Below, piece after piece: positions 6,786 to 38,644 of a DNA stretch of 64,000 bases. Position numbers and translations under genes: made by a program. This DNA comes from Nemertoderma westbladi (taxonomy: Eukaryota > Animalia > Xenacoelomorpha). The notes beneath the pieces are model-generated. The model searched no databases. It saw only the letters and a program-made list of their open reading frames with translations, and was not told the DNA's origin. The stretch spans positions 1-64,000 of the forward strand of contig JAUCBJ010009018.1 in the NCBI GenBank assembly GCA_032718475.1. Reading direction: 5' to 3'. Position 1 is the stretch's first letter. Every line of letters begins with the position of its first letter.

Positions 6786-6863
6786 CCGCTCCCAGAAAAT
6801 GGGATTTAAGTCTATAAAATATACAAAATCACAGTTTCTCAAATACGAAAATACTCTAAACAG

Positions 6864-15489: not shown

Positions 15490-16000
15490 GGCAGACTACT
15501 ATCAAGCCTAAACAAACTACAGTATGTGCAGATTCTGAAACTGTTAGTTAGTATGCGTTCTAACACGGTAGTACGACTTACTCTTTAAGAGGGGATTGAC
15601 CTTACCGCTTATGGCTGCCCCAACTTACTAACGGCACTTGATCAGACCAACTCTACACACGCAGCAATCCCTTCAGACCTAAAAATAGCTAGACAACAAT
15701 CCAGCCTACAAATATTTGAGTAATAACTATTACGGTACCTGAACAGACCACACAAACAAACACAGGCTAAAACACTGGCAGACTACGATCAAGCCTAAAT
15801 AAACTACAGTATATGCAGACTCTGAAACTGTTAGTTAGTATGCGTTCTAACACGGTAGTACGACTTATTCTTTAAGAGGGGATTGACCTTCAGCATATGG
15901 CTGCCCCAACTTACTAACGGCACTTTATCAGACAAACTCTACACACGCCGTAATCTCTCCAAACTCAACAACAGTCAGACAGCAGCTCAGCCTACAACTA
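15490..16000 (-). repeat. Tandem direct repeat (about 285-bp period) in the 5' leader of element A
   Basis: GGCAGACTAC...GTTAGTTAGTATGCGTTCTAACACGGTAGTACGACTTA...GGCTGCCCCAACTTACTAACGGCAC occurs twice. Confidence 0.85.
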
Positions 16001-16433
16001 TCTGAACAATCTGAGCAGGGTCACACGCCTTCTGCTCAATATTAGCCTACTAGGAAATAAAACCGACAGAAATAGGTAAAATCTCAATAAAAATTCAGGG
16101 CTGCAGTCCCTGATTAAGTACTAAGACCCACCAGTATACAATAATCAAATCGAATAATACTAAATGTACTTGTACAGCAGTACCGGTACCGGTGATGACA
16201 GTTAGGCCTACTGACCTACAAAGTACCGGTTCAGTTTTACCAGTCACTACGGTATTTTGCAACCTTATTGCCTACTGCAATAAGATTATAAACTGTTACT
16301 GTTCGACAGAACAGTATTAAACTGTATTTAATGCTTACACTGCAATACAAAGTAACTGTTACTGTTCGACAGAACAGTATTAAACTGTATTTAATGCCTA
16401 CACTTGCAACCTTATTGCCTACTGCAATAAGAT

Positions 16434-16445
16434 TATAACTGTTAC
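16434..16445 (-). promoter_or_regulatory. Non-tRNA primer-binding-site position of element A (GTAACAGTTATA), complementary to LTR 17187-17198
   Basis: Lies immediately 3' of the 5' LTR on minus, has no TGG, and is a perfect 12-nt complement of an LTR-internal site. Confidence 0.75.
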
Positions 16446-17679
16446 TGTTCGCGCTTTTGAAGACCTTTAGCAGTTTAACCTGCCAAAATTTATATGTCTT
16501 TTAGTTAATTAACACACCTTTAGCATACGACAATATTTTATGCTAATACGCAAAACATTAGCCGAAGCCAGCCCATGCGCGATCATTCACCCGATGGATC
16601 TACACCCGGGAGGCTGAATTCGGATGCTTAGATTTTATTATTGCAGTGTAAGGTTGCAGTGTAAACCTATTGTATTATTCGCTAGATCATTAATATGTAA
16701 TTTCTGACAGATATTATTAACTTTCGGGAAATATTAACAGTTCCTTTAGGACGTGGCGCTCTATCTATTTAAACAGAGCTGGGACTTATACTAAACGCAA
16801 CGATAAGGCTTATGATTAAAGTATAAGTCGCATTCTTTAGGAAATGCTTTGTTACCAGTCACATCACACTCACAATCATGCACACTATTCTGCCGACTGT
16901 CAGTATATTTGATCACACATAAAGAGAACAGCAATTGACTCAGGTAGTGTCTACTAAATAACATTAGATTCAATACACACCACATTGATATAAATCGCAA
17001 TTGTTATATATAGCCCGCCTCTCTAACCTGTAGTGTATCAAGAAAATTGGGAATTTTGGGTGATTTATCCGTATTCTCCAAAGAGCAATATTTCCATCAA
17101 CAAATAGATACAATTAATAACTGACGGTAAATAGCAGTACAAACAATATGATTAGTGCAGTTAAATTAAGTGAGGTAACACCGCCGGTAACAGTTATACT
17201 TTCTATAATCTAAGCAGTTTTACTAGAGTTCTTCCCAAAAAGCCGGTGTTTCTGGCTTAGACAGCAATAACAACAAAGTATCAAGTAAGGCAGTAAGACT
17301 GAACACTCTCCTTATGATCGGCTGAAAAGCTACACGTCGACAGGAAAAATCGCTCTGATTGGCTCAAGCCAAACAAAGAACTATGCGTCCAATGGCTGTT
17401 TCCATGTCAGCAACCAGCTGTTAGATGTCGTAATATGAATCATCACGGCTAAGCTGTGAAAGGTAGTTGGTGCATTACAGGTTTTTTGCCTTACCATGTC
17501 CGCCAAAACACGTATATAGCAGAATGACTTTTATGTCCGTTAAAACACCTGTAACGGTACCTTGCGGGCGAGGGGAATATATATACAGTTAGAGAACCTT
17601 TTTAGAGTATTCCAGCGCCTGGGGGGAAACTGGATTGCGAAGCAAAAGGGGCCAGTTATATCCCACAGAAGCTTTTACA
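16446..17679 (-). repeat. 5' LTR of element A
   Basis: Direct repeat of 5552-6785 with TG...CA termini. Confidence 0.95.
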
Positions 17680-19890: not shown

Positions 19891-19987
19891 GAACACTTTT
19901 TTTTCCTCATGTCCCTTTAGGGGCTCCGTACTACGGAGCCCCTAAATTTCCACATATATTTAAACATTTAACTAATAATTTACCGGA

Positions 19988-20038
19988 TCAACCTCACCAA
20001 GTCGGAACTCTTCTTTCTCGAGGAGGAATCTCCGGAGT
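19988..20038 (+). mobile_element. CRE-like non-LTR retrotransposon fragment, left half (split by element B)
   Basis: Reads in frame across the GGAGT TSD: INLTKSELFFLEEESPE|FHLSILRRFDEVCKGIKVHPLEDMKILGAPIG. Confidence 0.65.
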
Positions 20039-21214
20039 TGTAAAAGCTTTTGCGTCATTAACCGGTTATTTTCCCTTAAAGTACTCTGTAGTTGGTTTGC
20101 CAGGCATAAAAAGGCCATGTCCTTGCTTTACTGGTGTTTTAGAGGACATAAAAGTCATTTCTTCTGTATTTGTACTGTATTTGTACTTTAGAGGACATAA
20201 TCCGTAATCTCGTGACGCGATAAGCTAGATACTCTTGAAAACAGTGTCGCTACCATGACGACGGCTAACAGCTGATATTGCCACGTCGACGTTTCTTTGT
20301 TTCTTTGTTCTCTCGTTGTTCGGTTGACCAATCAGAGCGTTTTTTGTCTCTGTGTTGGAGGTGTATACAGAACTCAGTAGTTCAGTGTTTATGTTTTTGC
20401 TAGAGCCTAAGAACATCGGCCTTTGGCACCTACGTATATCAGCATTCTTTAGCTTTACATTAGTAGGCTTAATTATAGAACGTATATCTGTTATCGAAAC
20501 ATACTAACCACAAGTTAACTCATTCACTTAATAATCATTTATACATTAATATTACTGCTTTTACTGTCGGTTATTCATTATATTGGTTGATGAAATATTA
20601 TATCGGAATACTGATCAATAGTCAGACACCCCACCTTCTTGATATACTAAAGGTTAGAGAGACCGGTTACAGATAAACGATTGCGACCTATGTTGAGTGG
20701 TTTGAAGTGAATCTAATGCTATTTCATATGCCCAACATAAATTGTCTGTTGCTCTCTTTATACGTGACTAAATTTAGTGAAGGTCGGCAGATTAGTGTGC
20801 AGTATTGTGCAGCATTGTGTATGAGTGTAACTGATAACAAAGCATCTCCTAAAGAATGTGCCATATACGTTAATCTATAGCCTTTTCGTTGTGTCTAGTT
20901 TAAGTCATAACTCTGTTTACATATTTAGAGTGCCACGTCCTAAAGGAACTGTTAATATTTCCCGAAAGTGAATAATATTGGTCAGAGATTATATATTACG
21001 ATCAGTCGAATAATACGGTAGGCTTACACTATCAATCATTAAGCTCCGAACTCAGTCTCCCGGGTATATCCAACGGGTGAATGATTGCGCATAGACTGGC
21101 TTCGGCTAATGTAGTGTATCAAATACTCGTCATAAAGCTAAAGAATATATATCATCTAAAAGACATTCTAATTTTGGCAGGTTAAACTGTCAAAGGTCTT
21201 CAAAAGCGCAAACA
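20039..21214 (+). repeat. 5' LTR of element B
   Basis: TGTAAAAGC...GCAAACA. About 8 differences from the 3' LTR by eye. Confidence 0.95.
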
Positions 21215-21225
21215 ATAACAGATAT
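21215..21225 (+). promoter_or_regulatory. Non-tRNA primer-binding-site position of element B (ATAACAGATAT), complementary to LTR 20484-20494
   Basis: Abuts the LTR terminal CA, has no TGG, and is a perfect 11-nt complement of ATATCTGTTAT inside the 5' LTR. Confidence 0.75.
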
Positions 21226-21567
21226 TGCTTCTGGATTGCGGTGTAAGCAATCTAGTCGAAAGTACCGGTCGACCGGTAACCAGTAGGCCTGACTGCCTGA
21301 TCATCCGGACCGGTACTTACTTACAGTACAGGTACAGCAGTATTATTCGATTGTGGTATTGTATACCGGTAGGCTGTTTAAGAGATTAGGGACTGTACAC
21401 CCCTTGTTTCTTTTGGAGCTTATTTATTTCTGTCAGTTTTATTTATTTGTAGGCCAGTATTGAGCAGAAGGCGTGTAAGCCTGCTCAGATTGTACAGCTA
21501 ATTTGTAGGCTTGACTGTTGGCTAACTGTTGATTAGGTCTGAACGGATTGCAGTGCCTGTAGAGTGT

Positions 21568-22060
21568 ATGTCCGATAAAGAACGGTTAGGAAGTAGGGGC
21601 AGCCATAGCTGTAAGGTAAACCCCCATCTAAAGAATAAGTCGTACTACTGGGTTAGAACGCATACTACTTAACCATTTCGGAGTCTGCATGTCCTGTGGT
21701 TTATTTAGGCTTGATAGTAGTCTGCCATCGTTTGGTCTGTACTCTGTTTGTGTAGTCTGTACGGGTAGCGTATAATTTTATTTAGATAATTTGTAGGCTG
21801 GATAGTTGTCTGGCTGCTGTTGTGTTTGAGGAAATTTCGGTGTGTATAAAGCATCTGTCCGATAAAGAACGGTTAGGAAGTAGGGGCAGCCATAGCTGTA
21901 AGGTAAACCCCCATCTAAAGAATAAGTCGTACTACTGGGTTAGAACGCATACTACTTAACCATTTCGGAGTCTGCATATACCGTAGTTTGTTTAGGCTTG
22001 ATAGTAGTCTGTCAGTATTTGGTCTGCATTTTGTTTGAGTAGTTTGTACGCGTAGCGTAA
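21568..22060 (+). repeat. Tandem direct repeat (about 288-bp period) in the 5' leader of element B
   Basis: TGTCCGATAAAGAACGGTTAGGAAG...CGGAGTCTGCAT (about 120 bp) is identical at about 21568 and about 21856. Confidence 0.9.
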
Positions 22061-23399
22061 TATTTATTATTCAGAGTTTATGCTATTATTCGCAACATTC
22101 ATATCCCCAAGTTTATTCCTACAGTAATTGTGTTTGTTATACATACCGTTATAGTTAAACTAACCCCGGTACTATACGGGCTGCTTGGCGTAGGTAAAGA
22201 CTGGTGATTTTGTGCACCGGTCACTCCAGCAGATACCGTGGTTCTTTTGGCTGTTCAAGTATTTTTAACTACTAATTATTTGTTATACAAGTACTTGTAC
22301 CTAATTTAGGGTTTAGTGTACAGTGCTTTCCGAAAGCAATTAGTGTGTAGGCAGTGTATTTGTGTTGTAAAGTGGTTAATAGGCACGTTGGTTCTGGTAG
22401 ACCGCGGTAATTAACTTCTAGGTAGGGACACTCCGTGATACATAACGTAGTACCTATAGCGATACGGTTATAGGTCGTCAGGCGGTGGTATTTTCCTATC
22501 TGGACAGCGCAGTATATTTACTACTACTTATTATTTTCAAATACCGTAGTAACCTGTCCGTTGTAATAACCAGATATTCTAACCCTTTGTTAGGCTGGTT
22601 AGTAGACTTCTTGTAAAATTACCCTAAAAATTTGTATTTGTGTATTTGTAATTAAATTTTTGTGTTTATTTAGAGATTGTAATCTCAACCCGAATTGTAC
22701 GTAATTTGTAGTATTAAGTAACTTAGGTAAATTAGAATTATTTGTTTTAGTGTCCAACAAGTAGCACTCCACTGAGAGCGCACAGCTTATGTGTAGTGAC
22801 TCCCCCAGAAATAATAACATTTATTTCAAACATTGACAAAACCCATTAAACGGGTATATATATATTATAAATCAACTCAAACGATTTATAAATAGTAGGC
22901 CTGCCATATAACAATTAGGTCTCAATATCAGTTGGACTACTGCTTGAATAACGGTAATAAAGTAAGTTAAAGTAACCAAGTAACCCTTAAAATTCAGAAA
23001 TTCAATTATTTAAAATAATTGATATACCGGTATTTACGATAGGCCTATTATATATTTATATACTTGTGCTGAAATCATACCGGTATTCTGTAATTAATTC
23101 TAGTCTGTAATTATACTTATATATATACATTATAAGTGTAAACTGCATACCGGTATCCACGATAGGCCTATTATATATTTATATATATTTGTGCTAAAAT
23201 TATATACCGGTTTCTGTGAAAAACCTAGTCTGTAATAATACTTATATATACCATAAGCATACCGGTATACTAATATATTATATATCACGCTACACTGAGT
23301 AGCAGTATCGGTAATTAATTACTAGGCTAGCAGTTAATACTGAATTACTAGACTTACTTAGACTGTAATAGCAGTAGACATTCAACTGTGTAAACAAAC

Positions 23400-26300
23400 A
23401 TGTCTGATACTAAGCAGAACCTGTCAGACAGTTTATTAGATGAAACTATCTGCGACTCAGATAAGGGTGTAGAACCGTCTAGTCCTAAATTCAGTTCACC
23501 TCCCACTGTGAGGAAAGTCATCCCTCCAGTAGTAATAACAGAACCTAGGTTGGTCCAACATCGTAGGTCTATCATAGGCACTCGAGCTCAGGTCAAGCGG
23601 GACCAAGAAGCAGCGGAACAGCAACAACCCGCGAGCCAAGAACTTATTTCTCAGCGGCCCGACAGCTCCAGTAGTGAAGATACTGTAGAACTGACACCCG
23701 AGCGCGGAGCAAAGATGACGGATGCGATTTATTCGGATCCCCTTCTCATCCTTCCTGCAGCCGTACTCACTAGGTTATTGATCGCGGTGGAAGAACACCA
23801 GATCGATTGGGCGAGAAGTAAGCGATCCACTAAAGATCGTTATGAGGGATACACAAGGGAAGAGCTGAAGTCTATGGTCGAGTCGCAATGGAACTTCCCC
23901 GGACCCGGACTCCCATTTGATTTATCAGAAGCTGCCTGGGAAGACATACACCGGATGGGAGTAGCCAAGGAAACCATCGATCCAGCTGTGTGGAAGAGGT
24001 CCGCAGCCGGATACGCACAGGGATTCTTCAGCTCTATGGAGCGAGTAGAAAAACAACTGTTTCAACAACCTCAAGGACCTCAAGAGCAGGGACAACTGCT
24101 TTATCAAGTTAGAGAAAGAATTCTGCGAATCAGGCTAATATTATCAGCCTTTGAAGAGGCTTCTAAAAGAAGACAAGACACGTCGTTGCAAGTTGCCGTA
24201 AAGACTTGGTTTCAACGGGTGAGTCGCCAGGTTCAAGGAACAGCTTAGTGGAAAGCTCAGCTGGAGGAGCGCTCAACCCATGGAGAATCAACGGACGCTA
24301 CTTTTTCCCAAGTGGAAAGTGAAGCGACGGCAGAGAAACCGCATAAGAGGGATGCCATTGACATCTATCTGTCAGACTATCAGCGTTTTTTGGGAGATGA
24401 AGAGTTGAGGAGAAGGCTAGATGGACTTAGCCCTAATAGTGAAGGAGCCCAGCATGTGTTGGATGCAATTGATGTGGATAGGTTAGCGGCGAACCAAGCT
24501 AAATTCGATGAACAACTCCGCATCGCTAGAGACCAAGAAGAACAAGTAAAGAAAAAACGTATAGAAGATAGAAAGACAGCGGCAGTGGCAGCAGCAGTGG
24601 CAGAGGCCGAAGCGGAAAGAAAAGCGGCAGCAGCAGTGGCAGCGGCAGAAGCTGAAAGAAAAGCGGCAGTGGCAGCAGCAGCGGCAGCGGCAGAAGCGGA
24701 AAGAAAAGCGGCAGTGGCAGTGGCAGTGGCAGAGGCCGAAGCGGAAAGGAAAGCGGCATCGGCAGTGGCAGAGGCCGAAGCGGAAAGAAAAGCGGCACTG
24801 GCAACAGCAGAGGCAGTGGCAGAAGCAGAACGGAGGGCATCTGAAGAGGCAACCCAACTAGAGTTGGAAAATCTTCAAGAGAGGCAAGACAACTTCAATA
24901 AACAGTTAACAGCTAGTAATATGCAGATGATGAGTCGATCTACTCCCAAAAGACAGGGGTATACATCATCTGAGGAAGGCGATACTACCGATCCTGAAGG
25001 CGGAGGAAATCGATCTCGCCTAAGCAGACGTAAAAGAATGTCCCACCGTCAAAAATTGCCTGATTTGCTTCCAGCTGTTAGAAGGCAACTAAATAACACC
25101 AACTTAGGTAGTACAGAACCCACAGACCAAATAATTACAATAGAGAGACTCCCTACTATAGTAGATGAGCCTGAAATAATTAGGTCTGTTCCCGAAGCCA
25201 CCCTTTCGGTCGTAGAGACACCTGTACTCCCTGAACCTACCTCTCAATTCCCTTTGCACAGCACTAAGCTACCTGTGCCCAGCAGAACAGCCCATGAGAC
25301 AGTTCATGCCCTGGACTCCGAGCGAAATATTCATGATTTGTCGCCCGTTGTCCCTCGTCCGCCCGCTACAACGTTGGTGAATCCCGCTTCGGCGGTTGAA
25401 TGGGTGGATGAGAGACGACGGGGGATGGATCTCCTGCTCGGACAGATGCAGGAGACCGTTCAGCAATTCAAGGGCACAGTAAGGGAAAGTAGGCTAGAGT
25501 TGCAAGAGGTGCAGCAAAGTATCGCGCTAGAACGCGATAAATTAGTAAATGCACAAAAGGGTATACCACCACCCCCTGTAACTATAGGGTAATTATAGAC
25601 CTGTTGATAATGATATTCCCTATAGACCGGATCATAATCCGAGAAATTTATATACCGATAACTCGATATTAAATAACACGATGGCCCAAGAAAGTTTTAC
25701 GCGTCAAATGGCTAGAACCGAAGCCCGGCAAGCGGTAAAGGTGGGAGAGATCGTCAAGTTCAATGGAGATGAGATGAAATGGTTACCTTTTAATGAATAT
25801 TACAAAGATAACATACAGAACTCCGTGCTATCTAATGGAGAGAAACTTAGATTCCTCATCGAGTGCTTGGAAGGATCTCCCAAGTTAATGGCGTTAAAGT
25901 TTATTGGACATCCAGACGGATTAAGATAAGTTTGGGATACACTAAACATCAGGTATGGTAATAGGAATAACATAGCTGGGTATTTGTATGCAAAGTTGGT
26001 AGCGCCCCGAAAGTTTATTAGCAGCGGAATTATAGAGTTTTCCGATGAGATTCAGGAGATCTGCAGACAATTAGATTGGCTAGGTAAGTCTCATGAGTAT
26101 CAGAATGCTATGGTTATTAGAGCAGTGGCTTCTACTTTACCGAAGGGTGGAGTAGGTACACGCTGGGATAAGAAAGTGCTATATATGATGGAACAACAAC
26201 GACGAGACCCTACCATGGCTGATCTCATGTCATTCCTAGATGGAGAAGTGAAATTACAGCTCCTGAAACTGTCCAGAGAGAAGACACCGGAAAACAAGGT

Positions 26301-27751
26301 AAGTGAAAAACCCGTCGCTAGGAGAAAGGTAACCCCAGTGTGTTATACAGATGATGGCGAAAGCCAGACTTCTCAAGGAGAAGATAGCGGGAAAGACACT
26401 GATAGATCTTATTACGTAAATAAAATGCCTAAAGATCAGGTAAGTAAATTCAAGTCTCGAACAAATGACAGGAGAGAACAGGTAAGAAAAACTCCTCCTA
26501 CGTCTCCCAAGAGAATTCAGGTGAGAAAGCCCGAAGAAAAAACAAGTGTACACAATGTTACACAGAGTAAGGTAAGTAACATCAAACCGAAATGTGTGCT
26601 ATGTGATGGGACCCATCGCTTAAATATGTGTGATGAATTTCTAAAGAAATCATTAACTGAGAGACGTGAAGTCATGTGGGACAAGCGGTTGTGCTATAAT
26701 TGCCTCAGACAAGGACACCAACGGCGAACCTGTTACTCTGACACAAGATGTGCCAAGTGCGGTGCGAAACATCATATCTTGTTGCACACTGAATTCGAGC
26801 GAAATAGTCTGAGTCAGGTAAGTGATTCCGAACTACATGTCCAATTCAGTGATGTGAACGACACTGATCAATCTGAGATGGAAGGATTCTATACGGACGA
26901 GTTCTCCGACGAAAACGAATCCTGTTACATGATAAATACCACAGTGTATCGAGCACTCATCTATGAAAAAGATACAGACATTGACCTCGCTCTAACCACT
27001 TCTGATCGACAACCATTTTGGAAAGCGCCAACTTCCAATGTAGGGATTAGAGAATTTCCTGTGGTACAGGTAAGGGTCCACGGACCGAAAAGGAGTTATG
27101 TAGTGAACGCCCTCCTTGACTCCGGTAGTACAGGAACATTCATCGACAAAGAGCTAGCCAAAGACATATTCGCTGGACAACCCAAGTTCCGAACTAAGCT
27201 AAACATGTCAGGAATTATGCAAGTTTGGAAATCCACAGTAACCGCGGATTATTATGTAGGTGCGTTGTCCACCCCCCAGGACGAACTAGGAGAACATAGC
27301 ATAAGGTCAGTGAAAATTGTGGCTATAAAGAACTTCGCTACTACTCAAGCAGACCTTTATAATTGGGACGAGGATGAGAGCATCCAACATCTTAAGATAC
27401 CTCGATTCCAGACAGATTATCCTGGAGTGCAAATACTCATCGGTCAAATGCGCATGAAGCGATCGAGACGTTAGAGAAACGACCTGCTCAACCGCAACCT
27501 CTACAAGTTTATGCGGGAAGAACTAGAGTAGGTTGGTACTTTACTGGCCCTTCCCGTAGAACTCTAATGGAAAGATTACGGTACCTAAAGAGCAGGTATA
27601 CCAAGCGCGAGAATGGGAAGTTGAGAACAGTGAGTTCGACGATCCAACTGAGGGAACTCCATACTCCTCAGACAACGACGATATACATCAACTTTTTGAT
27701 GAGAAGAATGCCATCGATCTCCTTAAGGAAAGCGAGACTTGGCAAAATCAA
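23400..27751 (+). pseudogene. gag: Disrupted gag-protease region of element B
   Basis: Collinear with the ORF of element A. Lesions: stops at 24246-24248 and 25927-25929, a frameshifting deletion near 25585, a 1-bp loss near 27448 and a 5-bp insertion at 27579-27583. Knuckles and ALLDSGS are present. Confidence 0.9.
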
Positions 27752-30700
27752 GTGAACTTATGTCAACTCCTTCTCCCATCTGAGCGAGACGACTATAACG
27801 ACGAGCTTAATGACGTCATTGAACGTTATAATGCCAAGACTCGGGATGAACACGCCGTGAGATTCTTTACTCAAGAGGTCGTAGATCCCAACTCCTACGA
27901 TAAGGCCCTATCGGTGGAGGAAGAAAGAGCCAAGCAGATCCAAGCGATAACTACTCGTTTTCTTAAAGATCAAGGTAGGTATGAGATCGGACTTCCTTTC
28001 CGAAAGCGAGAACCAAAGTTCATTAACAACAGACCTTTGGCTGAGAAAAGAATTGCTCAACTACATCGACGCCTTACGGCAAATTCTTCAGCTAAAGAAA
28101 TGTATAAAACACAGTTGAAGAAGTTTATTAGCAAGGGATATGCGGAGCTAGTACCGGAAGAAACACCCATAACTGAGAGAACGTATTATTTAACTCACCA
28201 TTACGTTCCCAAACCCGGTAAACCCCATGAAGTACGAGTGGTGTTCGACGGCTCCGCCCTCTATATGGGCCAATCCCTTAATTCTGAATTGTTACCCGGA
28301 CCCAACTTACTCCAATCCTTGTTGGGAATATTATTAAGGTTAAGACAATACTCCATTGCTTTCGCCTCAGATATAGAAGGCATGTTCTTACAAGTCAAAG
28401 CGCTGGATAGGGATCGAGATAGCCTACGATTTTTGTGGTGGCCTGAAGGAGACCTCAATAAGAAACCGGTGGAGTACTGGATGACCATCCAAGCTTTTGG
28501 GATAATCTCGAGCCCTTCAAACGCCTGTTCCGTGGTGCGCACCACTGCGGATGACAACCGAGACGCCTTCTCTAAAGAAGTGATCGACAATATCAAACGA
28601 GACATCTACATGGACGATAATCTGAAGTCCCTTCCATCAGTCGAAGAAGCCATTGAGGTCGCTAAAGGAACGGTAGAATGCTTAAAGAAGGGTGGATTTC
28701 GATTAACTAAATTCACCAGCAACTCCCGTGAGTTTCTGGAGTCGATCCCGGTAGAAGATCGAGGAACAAAAGACCTAGATCTAATAAAGGATGATCTCCC
28801 AGAAACTAAGACCCTTGGTTTGAAATGGGACACAGAAATAGATATCCTGTTTTTCCAACTAAAACAGCGAGATAATCCAGTTCGGACTAAACGGATTTGT
28901 TTAAGTATCCTGAGCACTTATTTCGATCCATTGGGATTTATTAGCCCAGTTATATTAATTGCTCGGAGTTTAGTACAACAAATGTGGCTTGAAAACCACT
29001 CATGGGACGATCCACTTAAGGGAGAATTATTAAAGAAGTGGATGAAATGGGAAGATTCTCTACCAGCCATCGAAAACTTCATAATTTCCCGTTCATATTT
29101 TGGTCATGTTCTCCCTACGTATTCATATCAACTCCATGTGTTTGGAGACGCCAGCGATATGGGAATCGGTATAGTAGCCTACCTCAGGGTGGAAACTCCG
29201 GACGGAATTAAAGTCGCCTTGGTTACCTCTAAGGCATTAATAAACAACAAGTTGAAAGTTCCTCGAGCGGAGTTAAAAGCGGCTCTATACGCTACAGCCA
29301 TCAGCCGGAATGTAACAGAACAGATCGACTATCCCCTGGAGAAAATTGTCTATTGGACCGACGCTTTACTCGTGTTGGAGTATATAACCAATGAAGTCTG
29401 TCAGTTCAGCGTCTTCATTACCAACAGAGTAGCTATTATACTCAGTCGCACGACGATGGATCAATGGAGACATTGCCCCGGAACGATTAATCCAGCGGAC
29501 ATCGCTTCCAGGGGAGCAACTCCACAAGAACTGGTAGATACTCCAGACTGGTTAGGTGGACCCGACTTCCTCTACAAAGAAGAAGAAGAATGGCCTCCTC
29601 ATCTTACTACAGCAGAAATTAGACAGGCCAAGGGAGCGGAGAAAGTCAAACCTAAAACTCAGGCGAGTAAATCGAAGTTATTCAAACCCACAGTAGATCT
29701 GTCTGTACTACATACTTCCGGAGACGACGCTTTGGATCAGAAACCCACAGCCACAAATAAACTCGTTGTGGAAATCCGTGATAAGGATTGGAAATCTGGC
29801 ATACCAGACGTCTCGCAAGGACTCTCACCCCTTCTGCAGAGAGCGATACATCACTACAGTTCTTGGAATCGGCTTTGTAAGGCCGTTACATATTTAAAGA
29901 GATGTTTTCACCATCACTACTCTGGGATGAAAACAAAGGGTGATACCGCTCCAATCACATCAGTGCAGGTCCATGTTATTAAAGACCTCCCTAAATATAA
30001 GGTACCCGACAAGTTTCTGAAGGAGAAGATCAGTTATCAGGAGCATGAAGAAACCAACAAACAGTTGCTGAGACTCTTACAATGCTATGAAGATTCCGAT
30101 AAGTATTTCCTGTTGTTGAGAAATCCACAGATGCGCTTAAGGGATCGTTTCTCTAGCACAATGATAGATGGGTTGATACGTGTTGGAGGAAGGTTAACGA
30201 ATGCCCCATTATCCTTTGATACTAAGTTCCCCATACTCATTAGAAATCTTGAAATACAAGTCAAGATGATTGTAGATGTTCACAGCAAACTTTATCATGC
30301 TGGTAGAGAACGAGTTCTTAGCGAAATTCGAACTCGCTATTATTTTTATAAACCCCGTAGAGCTCTGAACCAAGTTCTTAGGAACTGTATACCCTGTAGG
30401 AAAGCATTCAGTAGGCCTTTAACACAGAGAGAGGCAGAATTACCTAGGGAACGAGTAAGCTTTTATGAACCACCCTTTACTAATACCGGCGTGGATTTAT
30501 TTGGCCCTATTGAAGTATATCGTGCTAGGACTATAGTCAAGAGATGGTGTGTAATCTTTGTTTGTATGACTTGTAGAGCCATCCATCTCGATATGGTGAA
30601 CGATTTATCTACCAACAGCTTTCTATTAAGCTTACGACGACAGATCGCTCGCTTTGGCACTAGTAACACGATGAGATCTGATAAGGGAACAAACTTCATT

Positions 30701-31492
30701 GGTGCCAACAATGAAATCAAAGCTTACGTCAAAGATTGGAACCAAAGACAGGTGGACGACCAACTACGAGTAACAGCGTCTAGTTGGACCTTCAACGCCG
30801 CCGACGCCCCTTGGTGGGGAGGAAGTTGGGAAAGATTAATAAGAAGCGTGAAGACAGCATTTCATTTTATAGTGCCTTGCCGCGCTTATCTCACCGACGA
30901 ACTTTTGCGGACGTTAATGGAAGAAATCGCCGCCTATCTCAACGAGAGACCGCTTATGCCAGTCTCATCGAGTCCCGATTCCCTGGAAGCGCTAACACCC
31001 GCGCACTTCCTACTGAAGAAACCTGTAGCCATGCTCCCACAATCGGAAATCACAGACGGAGACGAATACTGCCGACAAACTTGGCAACTCATGCAGTTGT
31101 TATCCCGTCGTTTCGCTGACCATTTCGAAAAACATTATCTGCCCACGCTACAACTTCGAACTAAGTGGTTTGCGCAGCAAGAAAACGTCAGCGCTGGAGA
31201 CATGGTGCTTATTGTGGATGTGGATCTTCCACATAAGCGGTGGCAGACAGGTCGTATAATCGAGACGCATATCTCGGATGACGGTTTGGTGCGATCGGTA
31301 GAACTCGTCGTCATGCGACGTAACTTCAAGAAACCGGGAATTGTCTTCGAGACGCAGCAGCTCAATCGCCCGGTGGGACGTTTATGTTTACTGGAAAGAG
31401 ACAGAGAACTCTCCGGAAACTATGGGAGACAAGATACTCTTCCCACGACCACCTCCCTAATCCAACAAACATCTAGGGACTCCCCAACTTAA
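27752..31492 (+). CDS. pol: Pol: reverse transcriptase, RNase H and integrase (open frame, normally the C-terminal part of Gag-Pol)
   Basis: RT: RVVFDGS, SDIEGMF, YMDD. RNase H: FGDAS, PRAELKA, WTD, NPADIASRG. Integrase: H-x4-H...CIPC, GVDLFGP, SDKGTNF, GGSWERL (DDE). Confidence 0.95.
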   Translation: MNLCQLLLPSERDDYNDELNDVIERYNAKTRDEHAVRFFTQEVVDPNSYDKALSVEEERAKQIQAITTRFLKDQGRYEIGLPFRKREPKFINNRPLAEKRIAQLHRRLTANSSAKEMYKTQLKKFISKGYAELVPEETPITERTYYLTHHYVPKPGKPHEVRVVFDGSALYMGQSLNSELLPGPNLLQSLLGILLRLRQYSIAFASDIEGMFLQVKALDRDRDSLRFLWWPEGDLNKKPVEYWMTIQAFGIISSPSNACSVVRTTADDNRDAFSKEVIDNIKRDIYMDDNLKSLPSVEEAIEVAKGTVECLKKGGFRLTKFTSNSREFLESIPVEDRGTKDLDLIKDDLPETKTLGLKWDTEIDILFFQLKQRDNPVRTKRICLSILSTYFDPLGFISPVILIARSLVQQMWLENHSWDDPLKGELLKKWMKWEDSLPAIENFIISRSYFGHVLPTYSYQLHVFGDASDMGIGIVAYLRVETPDGIKVALVTSKALINNKLKVPRAELKAALYATAISRNVTEQIDYPLEKIVYWTDALLVLEYITNEVCQFSVFITNRVAIILSRTTMDQWRHCPGTINPADIASRGATPQELVDTPDWLGGPDFLYKEEEEWPPHLTTAEIRQAKGAEKVKPKTQASKSKLFKPTVDLSVLHTSGDDALDQKPTATNKLVVEIRDKDWKSGIPDVSQGLSPLLQRAIHHYSSWNRLCKAVTYLKRCFHHHYSGMKTKGDTAPITSVQVHVIKDLPKYKVPDKFLKEKISYQEHEETNKQLLRLLQCYEDSDKYFLLLRNPQMRLRDRFSSTMIDGLIRVGGRLTNAPLSFDTKFPILIRNLEIQVKMIVDVHSKLYHAGRERVLSEIRTRYYFYKPRRALNQVLRNCIPCRKAFSRPLTQREAELPRERVSFYEPPFTNTGVDLFGPIEVYRARTIVKRWCVIFVCMTCRAIHLDMVNDLSTNSFLLSLRRQIARFGTSNTMRSDKGTNFIGANNEIKAYVKDWNQRQVDDQLRVTASSWTFNAADAPWWGGSWERLIRSVKTAFHFIVPCRAYLTDELLRTLMEEIAAYLNERPLMPVSSSPDSLEALTPAHFLLKKPVAMLPQSEITDGDEYCRQTWQLMQLLSRRFADHFEKHYLPTLQLRTKWFAQQENVSAGDMVLIVDVDLPHKRWQTGRIIETHISDDGLVRSVELVVMRRNFKKPGIVFETQQLNRPVGRLCLLERDRELSGNYGRQDTLPTTTSLIQQTSRDSPT

Positions 31493-32049
31493 AATGGCTG
31501 GAGTGGGTGTGTGACCATATTATTTTATATTTGTATTTGTTTTATTTTTATATTTATGTATGTATTATTATGTAATTTTATTTTAATCGTTTTATTTAAT
31601 TTTATTTAGTAGTATGGTATTTTAGAGATTATTTAGTAGATTAGTGCAATATATATTCGCGTTTATTATTTAATTACGTATATTATATATTTAGTGCGAC
31701 GGCGAGAAATAATTATTTTTCTCTTTCCTTACTGTCCGTATCATATTATAAATACGTGACTACAGTAAGATGAAATCTTCGTACTTATTAAAGTACAATA
31801 AAGCCACTACTATATTCAAGTATTATTGGTAGGCAGAGTATTAGGAATGCAAAGTTCAGATCCTCGTGTCTCGGCTAAACCAAGCTCTGGGTAGACCTTG
31901 GAAACGACTTGCCTCTTCACACTGACATTGCTTCGTGCGATATTGCTCTCATACCGTATATTAAATAATACATATAGTAGCGTGATGTCCCTTTAACAGT
32001 AGCGTATAACTAACGCAAAATAAATCTGTTAAACCCTTTGACCATCTGT

Positions 32050-32320
32050 AATTCTAGTCGATTAAGATATCGCGGCACCCACCGATATACTTGAAAGACA
32101 AATTTCTAGAATCAATGGTTAACGTCCCCAGACAAGTTCTGGAATAAACTGGTGCCCATCCTAAATATTAATTATTAATATTTACAAAAATCTGTCAAAT
32201 ATCAGGTCCTTTAAAATTCTAGTCGATTAAGATATCGTAGCACTTACCGATACTCTTAAAAGGACAAAATTCCTAGAATTAAGGATCCTATGTCCCCAGA
32301 CCTGCTCTGGAATCAAATTG
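32050..32320 (+). repeat. Duplicated block (about 165-bp period) in the pol-ORF3 spacer
   Basis: AATTCTAGTCGATTAAGATATCG..GCAC..ACCGATA...GTCCCCAGAC occurs twice, and is also duplicated in element A (about 9130-9390). Confidence 0.8.
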
Positions 32321-33137
32321 TGTCTATTTAACATTAAATAATCAAATTTACGGGAATAAATTTAAATTCATATATTTCAATGAATTAATAAATTGTCATT
32401 TTATACAATTTATAACATTCCCAAAATTCCATTAATTAATAGATCATGGGAGCGGAGATTCACTCTATTAAGTGTATTTGTGTGCGAGAATCTCCAATGT
32501 ATAGTCAATAGCCGATAAAATTCATAAAATCATGTATAAAGGGGATATTGACCATTAAAGAATTACTATTAAATAGCATCCCAGATCTGTATGCATGAGA
32601 ATTACCCTAATTCTACCGCTAGCTTTCCATAATGTCACCATGGCAACAACCACGCTAGAATTAGAAGTGAGTTAAAAGAACAATAGAAAGCATGCCCCAT
32701 TGAATAGCATAGGGAATAAATAGCGCACTGCTAGTACCCAAGGATACATAATAAATACAGTGACATTCTGGAAGGTACTGACTAACGGACAAATGGCCCG
32801 AATGTGTGCAGTTTGTTGCAGTTGTGTTGAATTTGTGCGTTTGTAGGTGAATGTTACTACTAAGGTGTGTTTACAGTAGCGAGTCGCAATTGTGAAAGTA
32901 ACCCTAACTCTCCAAGAAGAACCTGCAGTACATCTAAGCCTTTGGGACGGACAGTGAAGTGACTTGTGCCGGTTATCGTTGTCGTTGTGTAGCTACATCG
33001 TTGGCGAAAGCACAGCGACGACGGTACATCGGCGCTGAGGATCTTACACTGTCCGGGGGCAAAAGAGGGGTAGGCAGCGACGCCTGCTAGCCTAATATAT
33101 ATAAACTCATTATAATATTGATAAACTCATAGCAGAT

Positions 33138-36100
33138 ATGACTGAGTTGATAGAAGATGATCTTGGTATCAGGGAGCGATATACTCTACCTTTACAAGCA
33201 TTTGTCGATAGCTTGATACGCGGCGACGCTGGTCCAACTACTACGGAGGATGATGGTCGTTATATCGAACCGCCGATGTCCCCGGAGCAACTTACGCGTG
33301 AATTGGACTATAGAAAGTTCACCGCTCGCTATACGCATCGTAATGGTACGTATATGGACTTCTTAACTACCGGCCACCCTATCGATTTACACGATACGGA
33401 CGATGTGGATACCGAAAGGGAAATGGTTTTATTTAAATATCACACCCAACGGAATCGGAACGATAAGCCAAGAATAGAACACGAGAACTCTATTCGAAAC
33501 AGACTCGAAAGAGAAGACGTTGAAGAGCCGGATAAACGCAACGACTTCAACGATTATCTGGAATTCTTGAGAGAAACATACCTCAATATTGCCAGTCAAC
33601 AAAATCTCGAAACTCGATATCCTCAAGGTATACATCATGATCCTATGATAGAACTCAAGCGACTCTATTTCACTATGATGTATCTTACCGCCGATCGACC
33701 GCTACCTGTTGTCCCAGATAGCTTCGAACAGATGGAGGAATATTGTAAAACTGGAGAACGATCACCCGCGTTTCCTCTGCAGGACATGCGTCTTTGGTAT
33801 TACTGTGACGAATGCCCTAGACCCAATCAGCAAACGGAAAGACATAAACATCCGCGGAGACATTGCGCTAAACACAGTTTTACACGATATACTTACGGGA
33901 GTTTCGAGCGAAACCTGTTCGACGTGTCCCCTGCGGTCGCTCGACTCAAGCGATCCTTGAACAAACCGATGATCAGAGTTCCGGAATACTCGGTCAGACC
34001 TCCGCATTCCTCAGTTAGACCTCAAACTCTTGACCCTAATAGTATCACGGATCCTCCCGAACTGTACTCACTGTTCAAAGATCTAGTGTTACCCGAACAG
34101 TTGATCGGTGGCACTCCGGTAGTAGGCTCACGAGACATTCGCCAACCCTACCTAGCTGGATTGGGACGTGGTCATCTAATATCGCCGTTTAACCCATACA
34201 ACCGTCCCGGCTTCACCTCTATCCAACCCGCTACGGAAGTCGAAGAGAGCGTCGTACGAAACGCATTAGACGCTATTCGGCAGAAAATCGGAAAGGGAAC
34301 GTACGATTGTTTGGAGAAGCGTAAATTGCAGCAACAAGTCCAAGCGGTGAAGGAATTAGCTTTACCCCAGTTCGATAGAGAAATACAAAATCTCGAGGAG
34401 GACATCGAACGTGGACGAACCTACTCTTTACAAGAGTTTCTAGATGAGCGTCTACAACAACAAGCGGAGGAGAATCAGCTCGAGGAGAGACATATAGAAC
34501 TGGATGAGAGAGAAGAAGCGGCTTTAGCTCAACCCGAAGCGCAAATCCTTATGACGGATCTCTACTCTAAAACCATTCTTCATCCCTCGATGGTTCCCCA
34601 TTTCGGAGACAAACTTTTTGCGACGGCACAACCCCAACCGGTTGATATCAACCTAAGATCTCGCGATCTTATCGCCGACGCTCCTCTGTTGCAGCGTCCG
34701 CCCATCGAACCCGCTCGTGTCGATGGTATACTCGTTGAACCTCCGGACAATAGAGCAGATCTTGTCCGTCGCATGGTACACGATGTAAACATACGCGCTA
34801 GACCTTTACCGGACTCGTTTTATGGGATCAAAGATCACCCTTATTACGTCAATCTAAAACAATATTACATGGTAAAACCGAAAGATCCTACACATAGTCT
34901 GAAGTTTCTACCGTTAATAAATCCTCTCGATCTTGTCGAACTCGAACAACTGCAGAAACATCTGGATCAGTTAGTTAAAGTAAACTCGTTTCGAAAACCA
35001 TATAATGTTTCCAGAATAGAGAAAGAAACAATACCTCCGTATAATCTTGATGGATTCATCAAAACTCGTTTAGTGCACTGGAATCTTGATGTGTTATTCG
35101 AGGAGGAAAGAATACAACGATATGGAGATGTGGAAACATATACCACACAATGTTTAAAGTATAAAGACCTGCCTAATGCTAGCGAATGTGCTACCTTGTG
35201 GCATCCTGTGGGAATGACACTCGAAAACGCCACTAAAGAGTGGAACGAAACTCTTAACGTTATCGAGATGTATGGAGTTGTCACTTACGATAACGAAGGT
35301 AGCGTTCCGGTTGGAGAACTTGGAACTACGCGGATGATACACATACGAGGACTCGCTGGTTCTACCCACGTATTTACTCGAGCGTGTTCCGACGTTATTG
35401 ATTATTCTTTTGAAACTCTTACTGAGATACAAAAGAAACTCCGACATGGACAATTTGAACTCGCGCAGCGTTACGTCACCGACACCGAGCGCAAGCCGGC
35501 TATGGGTATCGATGGATCGATGTTACCCCAACCCGTGCTCGAGATGCTGTTTAACGAAGGAATCCTTAAAATCGGCTCAGCTGTTTATGGAGACCTACAG
35601 AACGACTTTCGGAATATGGAGAACATTCCATACCCCTTCGTTGATACTCAGCTGATTGCTCCTTGGGCAGAAGGCCGAGGTTTCTTCCGCACTACGTATG
35701 CCAATACACCCAGCGGAATTACCAAAGTACAACGAACCTCCATCGGACATCTTGCCTTTCAAGAATACGGATGGAATTTCAAGGTTGGAAATCCTATAAA
35801 TTACCAACAAGTATACGGAGATCATTATTCTCGTTTATACTTTGATGGACCATTGACCGCACCTGGCGCCGTGTATAGCTTTATGAGTGTTCCACTTCGT
35901 CCCTCCTTAGCTATATACACGATCTTTGAAAACGCAGCACTTGCCGGTTGGCTAGCCGATGTGTGCAGTCGTACCATACGCGCCCATCCCTTAGTACTTG
36001 GAACCAAACTCGCCAAGTTAGATGAACACAATAAATTCATCCGCTTTGAATGTTTCAAGCGCTTTCTGACTCCGTTCCGTAACGTTGATAGTCAGTTCAA

Positions 36101-37391
36101 GGACCGCGCTCTGACCAAACTCAGCCTGAGAGACTCAGCGGCGGAGAAACTAAACAGCGCGGGATTTGCCCTTTTTCAGGACGTTTGTATACAGAACTTG
36201 CACTCATCTGTTATACAAAGACCCCGAATACCCACGGGTTATTCTGTCGTCGAAGTTCAGACAGTGGGTCCGCTTGCGGAGACAGCCGCACCTACCTCAG
36301 CTATGCAATTGGAAGACGAACCAATATGCTTAGAAGCTGAAGCGATTCAACCTACAGCGCCCCGGAGCAGCGATAACGACTACGTCTTAGAGTGGTATCA
36401 AGGTCCACAATGTCTCACCGCATACGATTATCAACACGCTAACTATGTTTCTCGAAAACGTTGCCGATTATGCGCATCGAGAGACCATTTCACTCCTATG
36501 GACTCAGACGTACCCTGTTCCTACTTCCACGAACAACCAATGATGGAGATATATTGTGCGTATTGCAGAATTAATAACTCTCATATTTTTGCAGTCTGCC
36601 CCCAATTTATGACTCAATGCCATCACTGTCAACTTAAAGGACATGCCAGTTATAATTGCCCCTTTAATCACGATTTAGAGAGCGTAGATGAAATGATTAC
36701 CCTTCGCTACATCCGAGCTTGGGAAGCTAACGCGGATTTACACTGTGAGTCCCGTCATCGATACTACCCTGGACGCTCTTACGAGGGAGTTTACGCGTTC
36801 CATCCTTATTTATTAGCGTCTGTGGAACAAAAAACACGCATACCGAGTTACGAGCTAATGAAGCGTGTTGGTGAGTGTATTTCCACTAAATTTGTTAGAA
36901 GATACCTTAGGAACGTCAATCCTAACGATATTACTTCATACCATTTGATCAATTATATCCGTCAAGACCCGGAGTATGGCGATTTATTTATCAACTCGCA
37001 CCCTGAGTTACAGGAAGTATCTCGACGGCCCTACGAATATCGAGCCCGAGAACGCGAGCTGGAAAGAACTATCAAACCAAGGAAGTTTCTTACCACCCAC
37101 GGTCCGCCTACCGCCATTGCCCAGACAACCCGTCAAGGACCCGTAGGAGCTGCTGTCCTGAGGCGCGCCCTAAAGGCTGTTAGACCTCGCTCCACGGAAG
37201 TTGATATCGATCAACCAGGTACCTCGACCGGCGGATACACCGATCGCAATCCGAAACCTTCTGATGCAATTGTATTGCACCCTTCACCCAGGAGTTACAG
37301 CCCTCCTAGTAAAGTGGCTCGCCCCAAAGAGAAAAGGACTCTTACTAGCCTCAAAAAACTGCGTAAACGCCGTCCGCGTAAGAAAGACTAA
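33138..37391 (+). CDS. Accessory ORF3 (1417 aa): putative DEDDy 3'-5' exonuclease domain plus CCHC zinc knuckles
   Basis: Long intact ORF inside the LTRs. VVTYDNEG, LPQPVLEMLFNEGILKIGSAVYGD and FVDTQ resemble WRN/EXD/RNase D motifs. Three CxxC-H-C clusters lie near the C-terminus, followed by a basic tail. The ORF is certain; the domain call is by eye. Confidence 0.8.
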   Translation: MTELIEDDLGIRERYTLPLQAFVDSLIRGDAGPTTTEDDGRYIEPPMSPEQLTRELDYRKFTARYTHRNGTYMDFLTTGHPIDLHDTDDVDTEREMVLFKYHTQRNRNDKPRIEHENSIRNRLEREDVEEPDKRNDFNDYLEFLRETYLNIASQQNLETRYPQGIHHDPMIELKRLYFTMMYLTADRPLPVVPDSFEQMEEYCKTGERSPAFPLQDMRLWYYCDECPRPNQQTERHKHPRRHCAKHSFTRYTYGSFERNLFDVSPAVARLKRSLNKPMIRVPEYSVRPPHSSVRPQTLDPNSITDPPELYSLFKDLVLPEQLIGGTPVVGSRDIRQPYLAGLGRGHLISPFNPYNRPGFTSIQPATEVEESVVRNALDAIRQKIGKGTYDCLEKRKLQQQVQAVKELALPQFDREIQNLEEDIERGRTYSLQEFLDERLQQQAEENQLEERHIELDEREEAALAQPEAQILMTDLYSKTILHPSMVPHFGDKLFATAQPQPVDINLRSRDLIADAPLLQRPPIEPARVDGILVEPPDNRADLVRRMVHDVNIRARPLPDSFYGIKDHPYYVNLKQYYMVKPKDPTHSLKFLPLINPLDLVELEQLQKHLDQLVKVNSFRKPYNVSRIEKETIPPYNLDGFIKTRLVHWNLDVLFEEERIQRYGDVETYTTQCLKYKDLPNASECATLWHPVGMTLENATKEWNETLNVIEMYGVVTYDNEGSVPVGELGTTRMIHIRGLAGSTHVFTRACSDVIDYSFETLTEIQKKLRHGQFELAQRYVTDTERKPAMGIDGSMLPQPVLEMLFNEGILKIGSAVYGDLQNDFRNMENIPYPFVDTQLIAPWAEGRGFFRTTYANTPSGITKVQRTSIGHLAFQEYGWNFKVGNPINYQQVYGDHYSRLYFDGPLTAPGAVYSFMSVPLRPSLAIYTIFENAALAGWLADVCSRTIRAHPLVLGTKLAKLDEHNKFIRFECFKRFLTPFRNVDSQFKDRALTKLSLRDSAAEKLNSAGFALFQDVCIQNLHSSVIQRPRIPTGYSVVEVQTVGPLAETAAPTSAMQLEDEPICLEAEAIQPTAPRSSDNDYVLEWYQGPQCLTAYDYQHANYVSRKRCRLCASRDHFTPMDSDVPCSYFHEQPMMEIYCAYCRINNSHIFAVCPQFMTQCHHCQLKGHASYNCPFNHDLESVDEMITLRYIRAWEANADLHCESRHRYYPGRSYEGVYAFHPYLLASVEQKTRIPSYELMKRVGECISTKFVRRYLRNVNPNDITSYHLINYIRQDPEYGDLFINSHPELQEVSRRPYEYRARERELERTIKPRKFLTTHGPPTAIAQTTRQGPVGAAVLRRALKAVRPRSTEVDIDQPGTSTGGYTDRNPKPSDAIVLHPSPRSYSPPSKVARPKEKRTLTSLKKLRKRRPRKKD

Positions 37392-37469
37392 CTGTTTAGA
37401 GTATTTTTATATTTTAGAAACTGTGATTTGTTATATTTTATAGACTTAAATCCCATTTTCTGGGAGCGG

Positions 37470-38644
37470 TGTAAAAGCTTTTGCGTCATTAACCGGTTAT
37501 TTTCCCTTAAAGTACTCTGTAGTTGGTTTGCCAGGCATAAAAAGGCCATGTCCTTGCTTTACTGGTGTTTTAGAGGACATAAAAGTCATTTCTTCTGTAT
37601 TTGTACTGTATTTGTACTTTAGAGGACATAATCCGCAATCTCATGACGCGATAAGCTAGATACTCTTGAAAACAGTGTCGCTACCATGACGACGGCTAAC
37701 AGCTGATATTGCCACGTCGACGTTTCTTTGTTTCTTTGTTCTCTCGTTGTTCGGTTGACCAATCAGAGCGTTTTTTGTCTCTGTGTTGGAGGTGTATACA
37801 GAACTCAGTAGTTCAGTGTTTATGTTTTTGCTAAAGCCTAAGAACATCGGCCTTTGGCACCTACGTATATCAGCATTCTTTAGCTTTACATTAGTAGGCT
37901 TAATTATAGAACGTATATCTGTTAACGAAACATACTAACCACAAGTTAACTCATTCACTTAATAATCATTTATACATTAATATTACTGCTTTTACTGTCG
38001 GTTATTCATTATATTGGTTGATGAAATATTATATCGGAATACTGATCAATAGTCAGACACCCCACCTTCTTGATATACTAAAGGTTAGAGAGACCGGTTA
38101 CAGATAAACGATTGCGACCTATGTTGAGTGGTTTGAAGTGAATCTAATGCTATTTCATATGCCCAACATAAATTGTCTGTTGCTCTCTTTATACGTGACT
38201 AAATTTAGTGAAGGTCGGCAGATTAGTGTGCAGTATTGTGCAGCTTTGTGTATGAGTGTAACTGATAACAAAGCATCTCCTAAAGAATGTGCCATATACG
38301 TTAATCTATAGCCTTTTCGTTGTGTCTAGTTTAAGTCATAACTCTGTTTACATATTTAGAGCGCCACGTCCTAAAGGAACTGTTAATATTTCCCAAAGTG
38401 AATAATATTGGTCGGAGATTATATATTACGATCAGTCGAATAATACGGTAGGCTTACACTATCAATCATTAAGCTCCGAACTCAGTCTCCCGGGTATATC
38501 CAACGGGTGAATGATTGCGCATAGACTGGCTTCGGCTAATGTAGTGTATCAAATACTCGTCATAAAGCTAAAGAATATATATCATCTAAAAGACATTCTA
38601 ATTTTGGCAGGTTAAACTGTCAAAGGTCTTCAAAAGCGCAAACA
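37470..38644 (+). repeat. 3' LTR of element B
   Basis: Direct repeat of 20039-21214, preceded by the PPT and followed by the TSD. Confidence 0.95.

Follow-up and report, generated by a model that had tools for sequence, protein, structure and literature searches.

Accessory open reading frames (ORFs) with DEDDy-type exonuclease domains have been described in bdelloid rotifers, where such an ORF3 is carried by the long terminal repeat (LTR) elements Juno and Vesta and by Athena/Terminon; the domains are found in Penelope-like as well as LTR elements, and roles in RNA processing and in silencing have been discussed for them (Rodriguez et al., 2017, PMC5408684). Similarly, Dada DNA transposons encode a DEDDy exonuclease (PMC3706591), and in Trypanosoma brucei the enzyme TbRND, which trims guide RNAs, combines an RNase D exonuclease domain with four CCHC fingers that contact U-rich RNA (PMC7797062). 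Here we describe a third gene, ORF3, in a BEL/Pao LTR retrotransposon (element B) of Nemertoderma westbladi. The window analysed is a stretch of 64,000 nucleotides (assembly GCA_032718475.1, contig JAUCBJ010009018.1, positions 1 to 64,000, forward strand). ORF3 is predicted to join an RNase D-like domain to three CCHC knuckles, and its substitution pattern indicates purifying selection.

ORF3 runs without an internal stop from an ATG at 33138 to a TAA at 37391, starting 1645 nt past the pol stop (31492) and ending 78 nt short of the 3' LTR (37470). In 200 shuffles of 31493-37469, the longest stop-free run was 182 amino acids (aa), versus 1417 aa for ORF3. An earlier reading of this DNA, made from its letters alone (hereafter the sequence-only reading), had reported an intact sense ORF between pol and the 3' LTR with no evident signal peptide or transmembrane (TM) helix, and both statements hold: in Kyte-Doolittle windows of 19 residues, the maximum mean was 1.19, and 0.46 for windows beginning in the first 30 residues, so that this crude hydropathy test found neither of the two hydrophobic segments expected of an envelope glycoprotein. 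The gene is laid out as follows.

33138..37391, plus strand: ORF3, the accessory gene (ATG 33138, TAA 37391, 1417 aa)
33138..35207, plus strand: ORF3 residues 1-690, with an acidic start, a Cys/His cluster at 223-246 and a probable coiled coil at ~381-470 (by a crude heptad and composition score only)
35208..35972, plus strand: RNase D/DEDDy-like domain, residues ~691-945, with the candidate site D718, E720, D819, Y927, E931
36462..36900, plus strand: three CCHC knuckles and a conserved E..R..G.[FY].F segment, common to the distant homologue P0002 and present twice in the homologue P0003
37038..37388, plus strand: basic tail, ending in a K/R run that resembles a nuclear localisation signal, retained in element A (a relative of element B in the window)

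A third gene of any kind is rare among BEL/Pao elements, and env genes are the ones best known from this position. ORF3 shares its place in the element with them (PMC3118150), but it has no signal peptide, no TM helix and no fusion-protein match, and was therefore ruled out as an envelope gene. With Pao-type Pfam domains in pol and no hydrophobic segment in ORF3, the earlier description of the gene as a non-env accessory that belongs to a BEL/Pao family stands.

Selection on ORF3 was assessed against element A, a non-autonomous relative on the minus strand of the window. In pairwise Nei-Gojobori estimates between elements B and A, the ratio of nonsynonymous to synonymous substitution rates (dN/dS) was 0.078 for the 341 codons compared at the C-terminal end (95% confidence interval 0.051-0.116) and 0.059 for the 92 codons at the start; these values are rough, because dS reaches 1.0-1.5 in places, and conservative, because element A is decaying. 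As comparators, gag and the protease region each gave 0.10 and a short piece of pol gave 0.22; for two non-coding controls, translated in an arbitrarily chosen frame, the ratio was 1.8-2.0 with wide intervals. Since the nuclease region is absent from element A, variants from four public runs at 35200-36000 were used there instead, each classed singly and compared with an expectation drawn from the same mutation spectrum. Among the best 40 of 177 variants, ranked by support, 32 were synonymous versus 11.7 expected (p = 5e-11), none was an insertion or deletion, the eight replacements spared residues 718, 720, 819, 927 and 931, and the D819 codon varied synonymously. The sequence-only reading had named a dN/dS near 1 as one outcome that would count against it; the ratios against element A and the synonymous excess in the nuclease region fall on the other side, and they exclude a neutral passenger. 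On these comparisons ORF3 is under purifying selection similar to that on gag.

Kinship of the ORF3 domain with RNase D emerges from several libraries. Its only two NCBIfam matches are both RNase D (E 0.013 and 0.035), P0002 matches PF01612 at E 0.037, and in the ESM Atlas 25 of 30 matches fall in the PF01612 set (best 0.92), the family being annotated on 50% of members. Reference profiles were also built from bacterial PF01612 matches, which makes this a targeted and not a blind test. A 30-sequence RNase D profile scored ORF3 at 10.4 bits and P0002 at 14.4 bits (shuffles reached at most 3.3, with 177 of 600 scored), and HHalign of ORF3 together with P0002 against an RNase D profile gave 92%, versus a maximum of 1.5% in 60 column shuffles. 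With P0002 as master, the HHalign match extended over 95 columns and included ExoI. With a two-sequence profile, E. coli RNase D came up no better than at E 1.2, as fourth of 6 matches. All library matches of the domain lie below curated cut-offs, and two AlphaFold models of the region (pLDDT 30.7 and 30.0) are too low for fold assignment. Taken as a whole, these profile comparisons make an RNase D-type ancestry very probable.

The motifs that the sequence-only reading had listed are where it placed them (VVTYDNEG at 35277, LPQPV..YGD at 35523, FVDTQ at 35637, SIGHLA at 35739 and PLT at 35850), and ExoII is the clearest among the candidate catalytic positions. The window holding D819 ranks top of 1404 in ORF3 and its counterpart top of 635 in P0002 in an ungapped scan, and HHalign aligns it too. 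For ExoI, D718/E720 pairs with the D-V-E of P0002 only given a ~29-residue insertion in ORF3, which is found by E-INS-i and is absent from the L-INS-i and G-INS-i alignments; when ORF3 is the master, one extended HHalign run of two places D718/E720 on the D-T-E of RNase D, and the route through P0002 places it there as well. The earlier proposal of PLT..Y as ExoIII was rejected, since PLT905..Y913 is followed by Ser917 where an acid is expected and the P0002 alignment lies elsewhere. P0002 contains PL-x3-Q-x2-Y-x3-E, with the same spacing as PL-x3-Q-x2-Y-x3-D in E. coli RNase D; this P0002 motif ranks 2 of 631 windows in the ExoIII scan and aligns with ORF3 residues 919-931, so ExoIII is probably Y927/E931. 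No candidate register of ORF3 offers the Asp of Y-x3-D. The putative site would thus read D718-E720-D819-Y927-E931, or DEDE(y), as seen through one homologue, in which D-x-E, D and Y-x3-E are kept in the same order.

A HMMER search with ORF3 residues 560-1290 against 1.84 billion representatives returned two proteins at E ≤ 1e-3, each an unnamed singleton: P0002, of 648 aa, at E 1.5e-6, and P0003, of 633 aa, at E 9.5e-5. They are built alike, with an N-terminal domain that is nuclease-like, then a linker, three Cys/His clusters and the E..R..G.[FY].F segment; in P0003, the knuckle module and this segment are doubled. Word-indexed protein searches gave no relative beyond P0002, and none was found in metagenome, viral, bacterial-genome or phage DNA collections, which are libraries not built for animal transposon ORFs; a plasmid collection gave a single chance match (E 4). 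The P0003 gene is intronless and lies on a 3685-nt contig (L001) on which pol was not found, and an open frame at the end of this contig has no similarity to element A gag. About 40 nt past the P0003 stop, a purine run plus TG (L001:2025-2075) resembles the junction of ORF3, polypurine tract and LTR in element B, a likeness that is suggestive only. The linkage of ORF3 to BEL pol is known only for the family in this window.

The Cys motifs, like the others, were correctly placed by the sequence-only reading (CRLC at 36462, CAYC at 36555, CHHC at 36618), with knuckle spacings as it gave them: relative to C-x2-C-x4-H-x4-C, one knuckle is canonical, one is an x5 variant and one an x9 variant. zf-CCHC_3 matches ORF3 at E 9.5e-4, under its cut-off. 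A five-sequence profile of the knuckle module matches Air2 (E 3e-5), HIV nucleocapsid (7e-5) and Lin28 (1e-3) in the PDB, and since these scores lie close together, they point to likeness at the level of the knuckle and not to Air2 orthology. Element A keeps 11 of the 12 knuckle ligands, the twelfth being its stop. Of the further Cys/His cluster noted at about 33800, the CDEC at 33804 is present; the cluster agrees with a loose pattern only and does not fit that of a CCHC knuckle. The K/R-rich tail was also borne out, with 26% K/R in residues 1301-1417, and its terminal run is a putative nuclear localisation signal.

The carrier, element B, is bounded by a 5-bp target-site duplication, GGAGT (20034-20038 and 38645-38649). 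Its LTRs (20039-21214 and 37470-38644) are 99.3% identical, and together with the duplication this identity indicates a young insertion. Its parts outside ORF3, with its relative, are as follows.

20039..21214, plus strand: 5' LTR of element B, 1176 nt, TG...CA ends
21215..23399, plus strand: long 5' untranslated region of element B, with a ~287-nt tandem repeat
23394..27474, plus strand: gag-protease region of element B, in three open frames (23394-24248, 24249-25592, 25930-27474)
27560..31492, plus strand: pol of element B (reverse transcriptase with YMDD, RNase H region, integrase), in its own open frame apart from gag-protease
31493..33137, plus strand: non-coding spacer between pol and ORF3, 1645 nt, with 2-17% substitutions versus element A per 150-nt window
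32948..33055, plus strand: long G-U-rich stem-loop, 82 nt upstream of the ORF3 start codon (element A ~8395-8498, minus strand)
37458..38644, plus strand: 3' end of element B, where a short purine-rich tract leads into the 3' LTR (37470-38644)
5552..17679, minus strand: element A, non-autonomous relative, with LTRs at 5552-6785 and 16446-17679; recently inserted

In Pfam, pol matches Peptidase_A17 (E 1e-36), which carries the name Pao there, DUF5641 (E 2e-19) and Integrase_H2C2 (E 5e-7). The gag-protease region matches DUF1759 (E 1e-3, under cut-off) and Asp_protease_2 (E 1.5e-3), and DUF1759 matches the gag of element A at E 9e-12; we take DUF1759 and DUF5641 to be BEL/Pao markers. By this domain content and by its order of protease, reverse transcriptase, RNase H and integrase, the carrier is a BEL/Pao LTR retrotransposon, a group described as metazoan (PMC3118150). 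The gag-pol part lies in four open frames (the 23394-27560 region plus pol), whereas ORF3 is unbroken. The gag of element B has a ~190-residue N-terminal segment absent from element A, and a tandem repeat of Ala and Glu comes after this segment. In neither element does the 5' LTR edge (21215-21264 in B; 16396-16445, minus strand, in A) carry a TGG-type primer-binding site; both edges start with RTAACAG and fold into a hairpin, with sequences that differ between A and B.

Element A has LTRs that are 99.5% identical and a target duplication, GATTG. It lacks most of pol and ORF3 residues 126-1075; what it keeps of ORF3, residues 1-125 and 1076-1417, is 83-95% identical in amino acids, in agreement with the earlier statement that ORF3 is present there in deleted form and hence belongs to the family. 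This remnant is frameshifted near residue 93 and interrupted by a stop where residue 1140 would stand. The pol deletion joint of element A (29646>31363 on B) was found in all four public runs and the ORF3 deletion joint (33506>36311 on B) in two of the four; the deleted form is therefore not unique to this locus. In each of the four runs, summed depth extends over the full set of 30 bins of element B, and variant contigs are very numerous in runs X1 and X3; this fits a multi-copy family, although no copy number follows. In run X5, labelled as a second organism, contigs cover all 30 bins, are mostly 85-99% alike and include both A-type joints; this signal could reflect a related species, mixed DNA or transfer. 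X5 may be an RNA run, and its contigs span non-coding parts too. No splice-like joint into ORF3 occurred among the best 15 of 133 joints. Neither point is evidence on expression in one direction or the other. Directly 5' of the ORF3 start (33120-33140) stands TAGCAG, identical in A, with a CTAAT-like motif ~40 nt upstream; it could be a splice acceptor, and no polypyrimidine tract is present there.

The stem-loop upstream of ORF3 (32948-33055) folds at -62.9 kcal/mol, with z -7.7 in sense versus z -3.1 in antisense, in a 116-nt window chosen after the fold had been seen; its counterpart in element A has z -6.3 versus -4.5. The two elements share 42 pairs, four of them changed on one side and two on both, two sequences being too few for covariation. 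A 150-nt sliding scan, whose windows cut through the stem-loop, gave z -1.7 there and values down to -3.8 elsewhere. The stem-loop may be a translation, localisation or packaging signal. Rfam had no match across 19900-38800, and the spacer blocks 31690-32010 and 32460-32720 folded no better than shuffles. Two non-coding blocks, 31805-31954 and 22081-23280, differ by just 2-9% substitutions between A and B, whereas synonymous sites differ by a dS of 0.3-1.0; either conserved cis signals or recombination between subfamilies would account for them.

Elsewhere in the window, a minus-strand fragment (53512-54678) is akin to the 5' untranslated region of the element (93% over 202 nt), and an open frame beside it resembles the gag N-terminus by eye, tblastn finding no match at E 1e-4. 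A C2H2 zinc-finger array gene with an 84-nt period lies at 41553-43049 (minus strand), and its upstream part is partially duplicated near 52224-52473, in the interval 52178-53242. Two non-LTR-type reverse transcriptase fragments, at 2645-3277 and 55165-56100, lie in opposite orientation and are 96% identical over 393 nt, and a 21-nt tandem repeat (19592-19889) lies ~150 nt upstream of the element B 5' LTR.

Juno and Vesta are gypsy-type elements, whereas the carrier here belongs to BEL/Pao. The word BEL does not occur in the bdelloid study (PMC5408684). In both cases pol and the 3' LTR have a further ORF between them that is separate and not an env gene, encodes an RNase D-like domain with one D-to-E change and lacks a TM helix (PMC5408684). 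In contrast, the present ORF3 has 1417 aa and a triple knuckle module (the bdelloid proteins were compared by description only), its change apparently affects the fourth acid, giving DEDE instead of the bdelloid DEED, and it shows purifying selection, whereas the bdelloid variation test, on env-like and GDSL ORF3s, looked neutral (PMC5408684). TbRND resembles ORF3 in having an exonuclease domain followed by C-terminal CCHC knuckles, but it is a mitochondrial enzyme of the host, its linker is short and its DEDD site canonical (PMC7797062). ORF3, by comparison, is carried by an element, its linker spans ~160 residues and its N-terminal region is long. For P0002, the best look-alike in the Atlas is a cluster with PF01612 and zf-CCHC whose members are mostly euglenozoan (0.86), which is a lead only, and the layout common to ORF3 and TbRND may be convergent, because phmmer of ORF3 against the PDB returned no TbRND-type entry. 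EXD1 and Egalitarian are RNA-pathway proteins with an RNase D-related fold, in which binding can outweigh cutting; unlike ORF3, they are host genes with Lsm or helical accessory domains and no knuckles (PMC4712191; 10.1101/2025.08.03.668247), and EXD1 is without the acids that ORF3 appears to keep (PMC4712191). In Dada, finally, the DEDDy domain lies inside a DDE transposase, keeps all four DEDD residues and has been proposed to act on DNA ends (PMC3706591).

The novelty implied by the sequence-only reading was thus overstated, in that DEDDy third ORFs of LTR retrotransposons have been published (PMC5408684). The concept is known; the BEL/Pao carrier and the fusion to knuckles are apparently new. 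Among the literature matches listed there was neither a DEDDy ORF3 of a BEL/Pao element nor an exonuclease-plus-knuckle ORF3 of any element, although one may be annotated in Repbase, GyDB, subscription journals or supplements, and the word exonuclease is absent from PMC3118150.

The reading that we rank highest, and hold tentatively, is that ORF3 is a predicted trans-acting RNA 3'-end enzyme that protects the element by blunting silencing through host small RNAs or host RNA surveillance. In its anatomy ORF3 looks like an RNA 3'-end enzyme guided by knuckles, and TbRND, which trims guide RNAs, is laid out alike (PMC7797062). The zinc knuckles would grip single-stranded RNA, which the RNase D-type domain would trim from its 3' end; the basic tail suggests a nuclear location, the substrate would be RNA rather than DNA, and trimming may blunt the silencing or surveillance directed at the element, a host pathway being the presumed target. 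Any need for ORF3 would be met in trans, because element A inserted recently without reverse transcriptase or nuclease domain. A host-facing role is favoured over one replication step, because DEDDy domains are reused across unlike replication chemistries, and from this we infer the anti-silencing role, which the sequence-only reading had put forward for piRNA/siRNA silencing. A number of points weigh against such an enzyme. The exonuclease-like domain of the sequence-only reading is upheld, with moderate strength, as to RNase D kinship, but Pfam and PDB sequence searches gave no match for the nuclease domain itself; the HHalign and HMM signal comes from ~48 columns centred on ExoII, the profile made from 40 stand-alone PF01612 proteins reached only 7-12% and did not rise above shuffles, and the Atlas match rests on 166 features, versus the tool's guide of 170, under a calibration that excludes partial proteins. 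At the candidate site, ExoI and ExoIII lie outside the top four ungapped windows of ORF3 (rank 2 in P0002), extended HHalign places the RNase D ExoIII on ORF3 ~886-897, where the catalytic position has no acid, and the fourth acid is Glu instead of Asp. P0003 has D-x-K at ExoI, no recognisable ExoII or ExoIII acids and two knuckle modules; degenerate members therefore exist. Moreover, Egalitarian keeps all DEDDy residues and needs none of them for RNA binding or function (10.1101/2025.08.03.668247).

The Glu in ORF3 and the lost site of P0003, with its doubled knuckle module, would suit an exonuclease fold that serves as a non-catalytic RNA adaptor of the EXD1/Egalitarian kind; ORF3 would then bind structured RNA of the element, for which the stem-loop at 32948-33055 is a possible candidate, and would route, protect or translate it. 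EXD1 is an inactive DEDD-fold RNA adaptor (PMC4712191), the EXO domain of Egalitarian is structurally nearest RNase D, binds stem-loop signals and has the I factor retrotransposon among its cargoes (10.1101/2025.08.03.668247), and the strand-biased stem-loop is retained in non-autonomous element A. However, D718, E720, D819, Y927 and E931 are all matched in P0002 at ~30% identity, which metal binding explains more easily, and the stem-loop, a putative partner only, may be an ordinary translation or splicing signal; we regard an adaptor as possible, behind the trimming enzyme. An active nuclease that works in the element's own replication, on the primer, the genomic RNA 3' end or the cDNA ends, seems unlikely. 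Priming may indeed be unusual in A and B, with a hairpin in place of a TGG-type site, the knuckles resemble nucleocapsid, and bdelloid ORF3 has been proposed to process element RNA 3' ends (PMC5408684), but ORF3 is a separate gene 1645 nt past pol with no evident route into the particle, and a third gene is present in few BEL/Pao elements (PMC3118150, on env) and so dispensable for core replication. Lowest in the ranking is a domain that is not DEDDy-derived, its motifs arising by chance, or an ORF3 that is a neutral passenger. The failure to reach any curated cut-off and the AlphaFold pLDDT of ~30 leave some room for chance motifs, yet several methods converge on RNase D/PF01612 and the selection tests exclude the passenger, which makes this an improbable account. 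A far-reaching extension of the trimming enzyme, which we consider a long shot, would make ORF3 the first case of a retrotransposon encoding a mimic of the machinery for nuclear RNA surveillance or small-RNA trimming, combining an RNase D/Rrp6-type exonuclease, Air2-like knuckles and a nuclear signal; it would come from a widespread family, carried by elements and so far undescribed, in which some members are active and others dead, and would disarm host silencing in trans, the upstream stem-loop being its cis target or control signal.

To our knowledge, there is little documentation of counter-defence proteins encoded by the LTR retrotransposons of animals; no counter-defence nuclease of such elements was described among the literature matches listed, as far as their titles and abstract openings go. 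The usefulness of DEDDy third ORFs was left undecided by the bdelloid study (PMC5408684). ORF3 supplies that evidence, with purifying selection as strong as on gag, and does so for a second superfamily of LTR elements. The gene further provides an exonuclease-plus-knuckle unit that is compact and expressible, with a candidate active site and a candidate RNA partner, which makes the role of captured nucleases directly testable.

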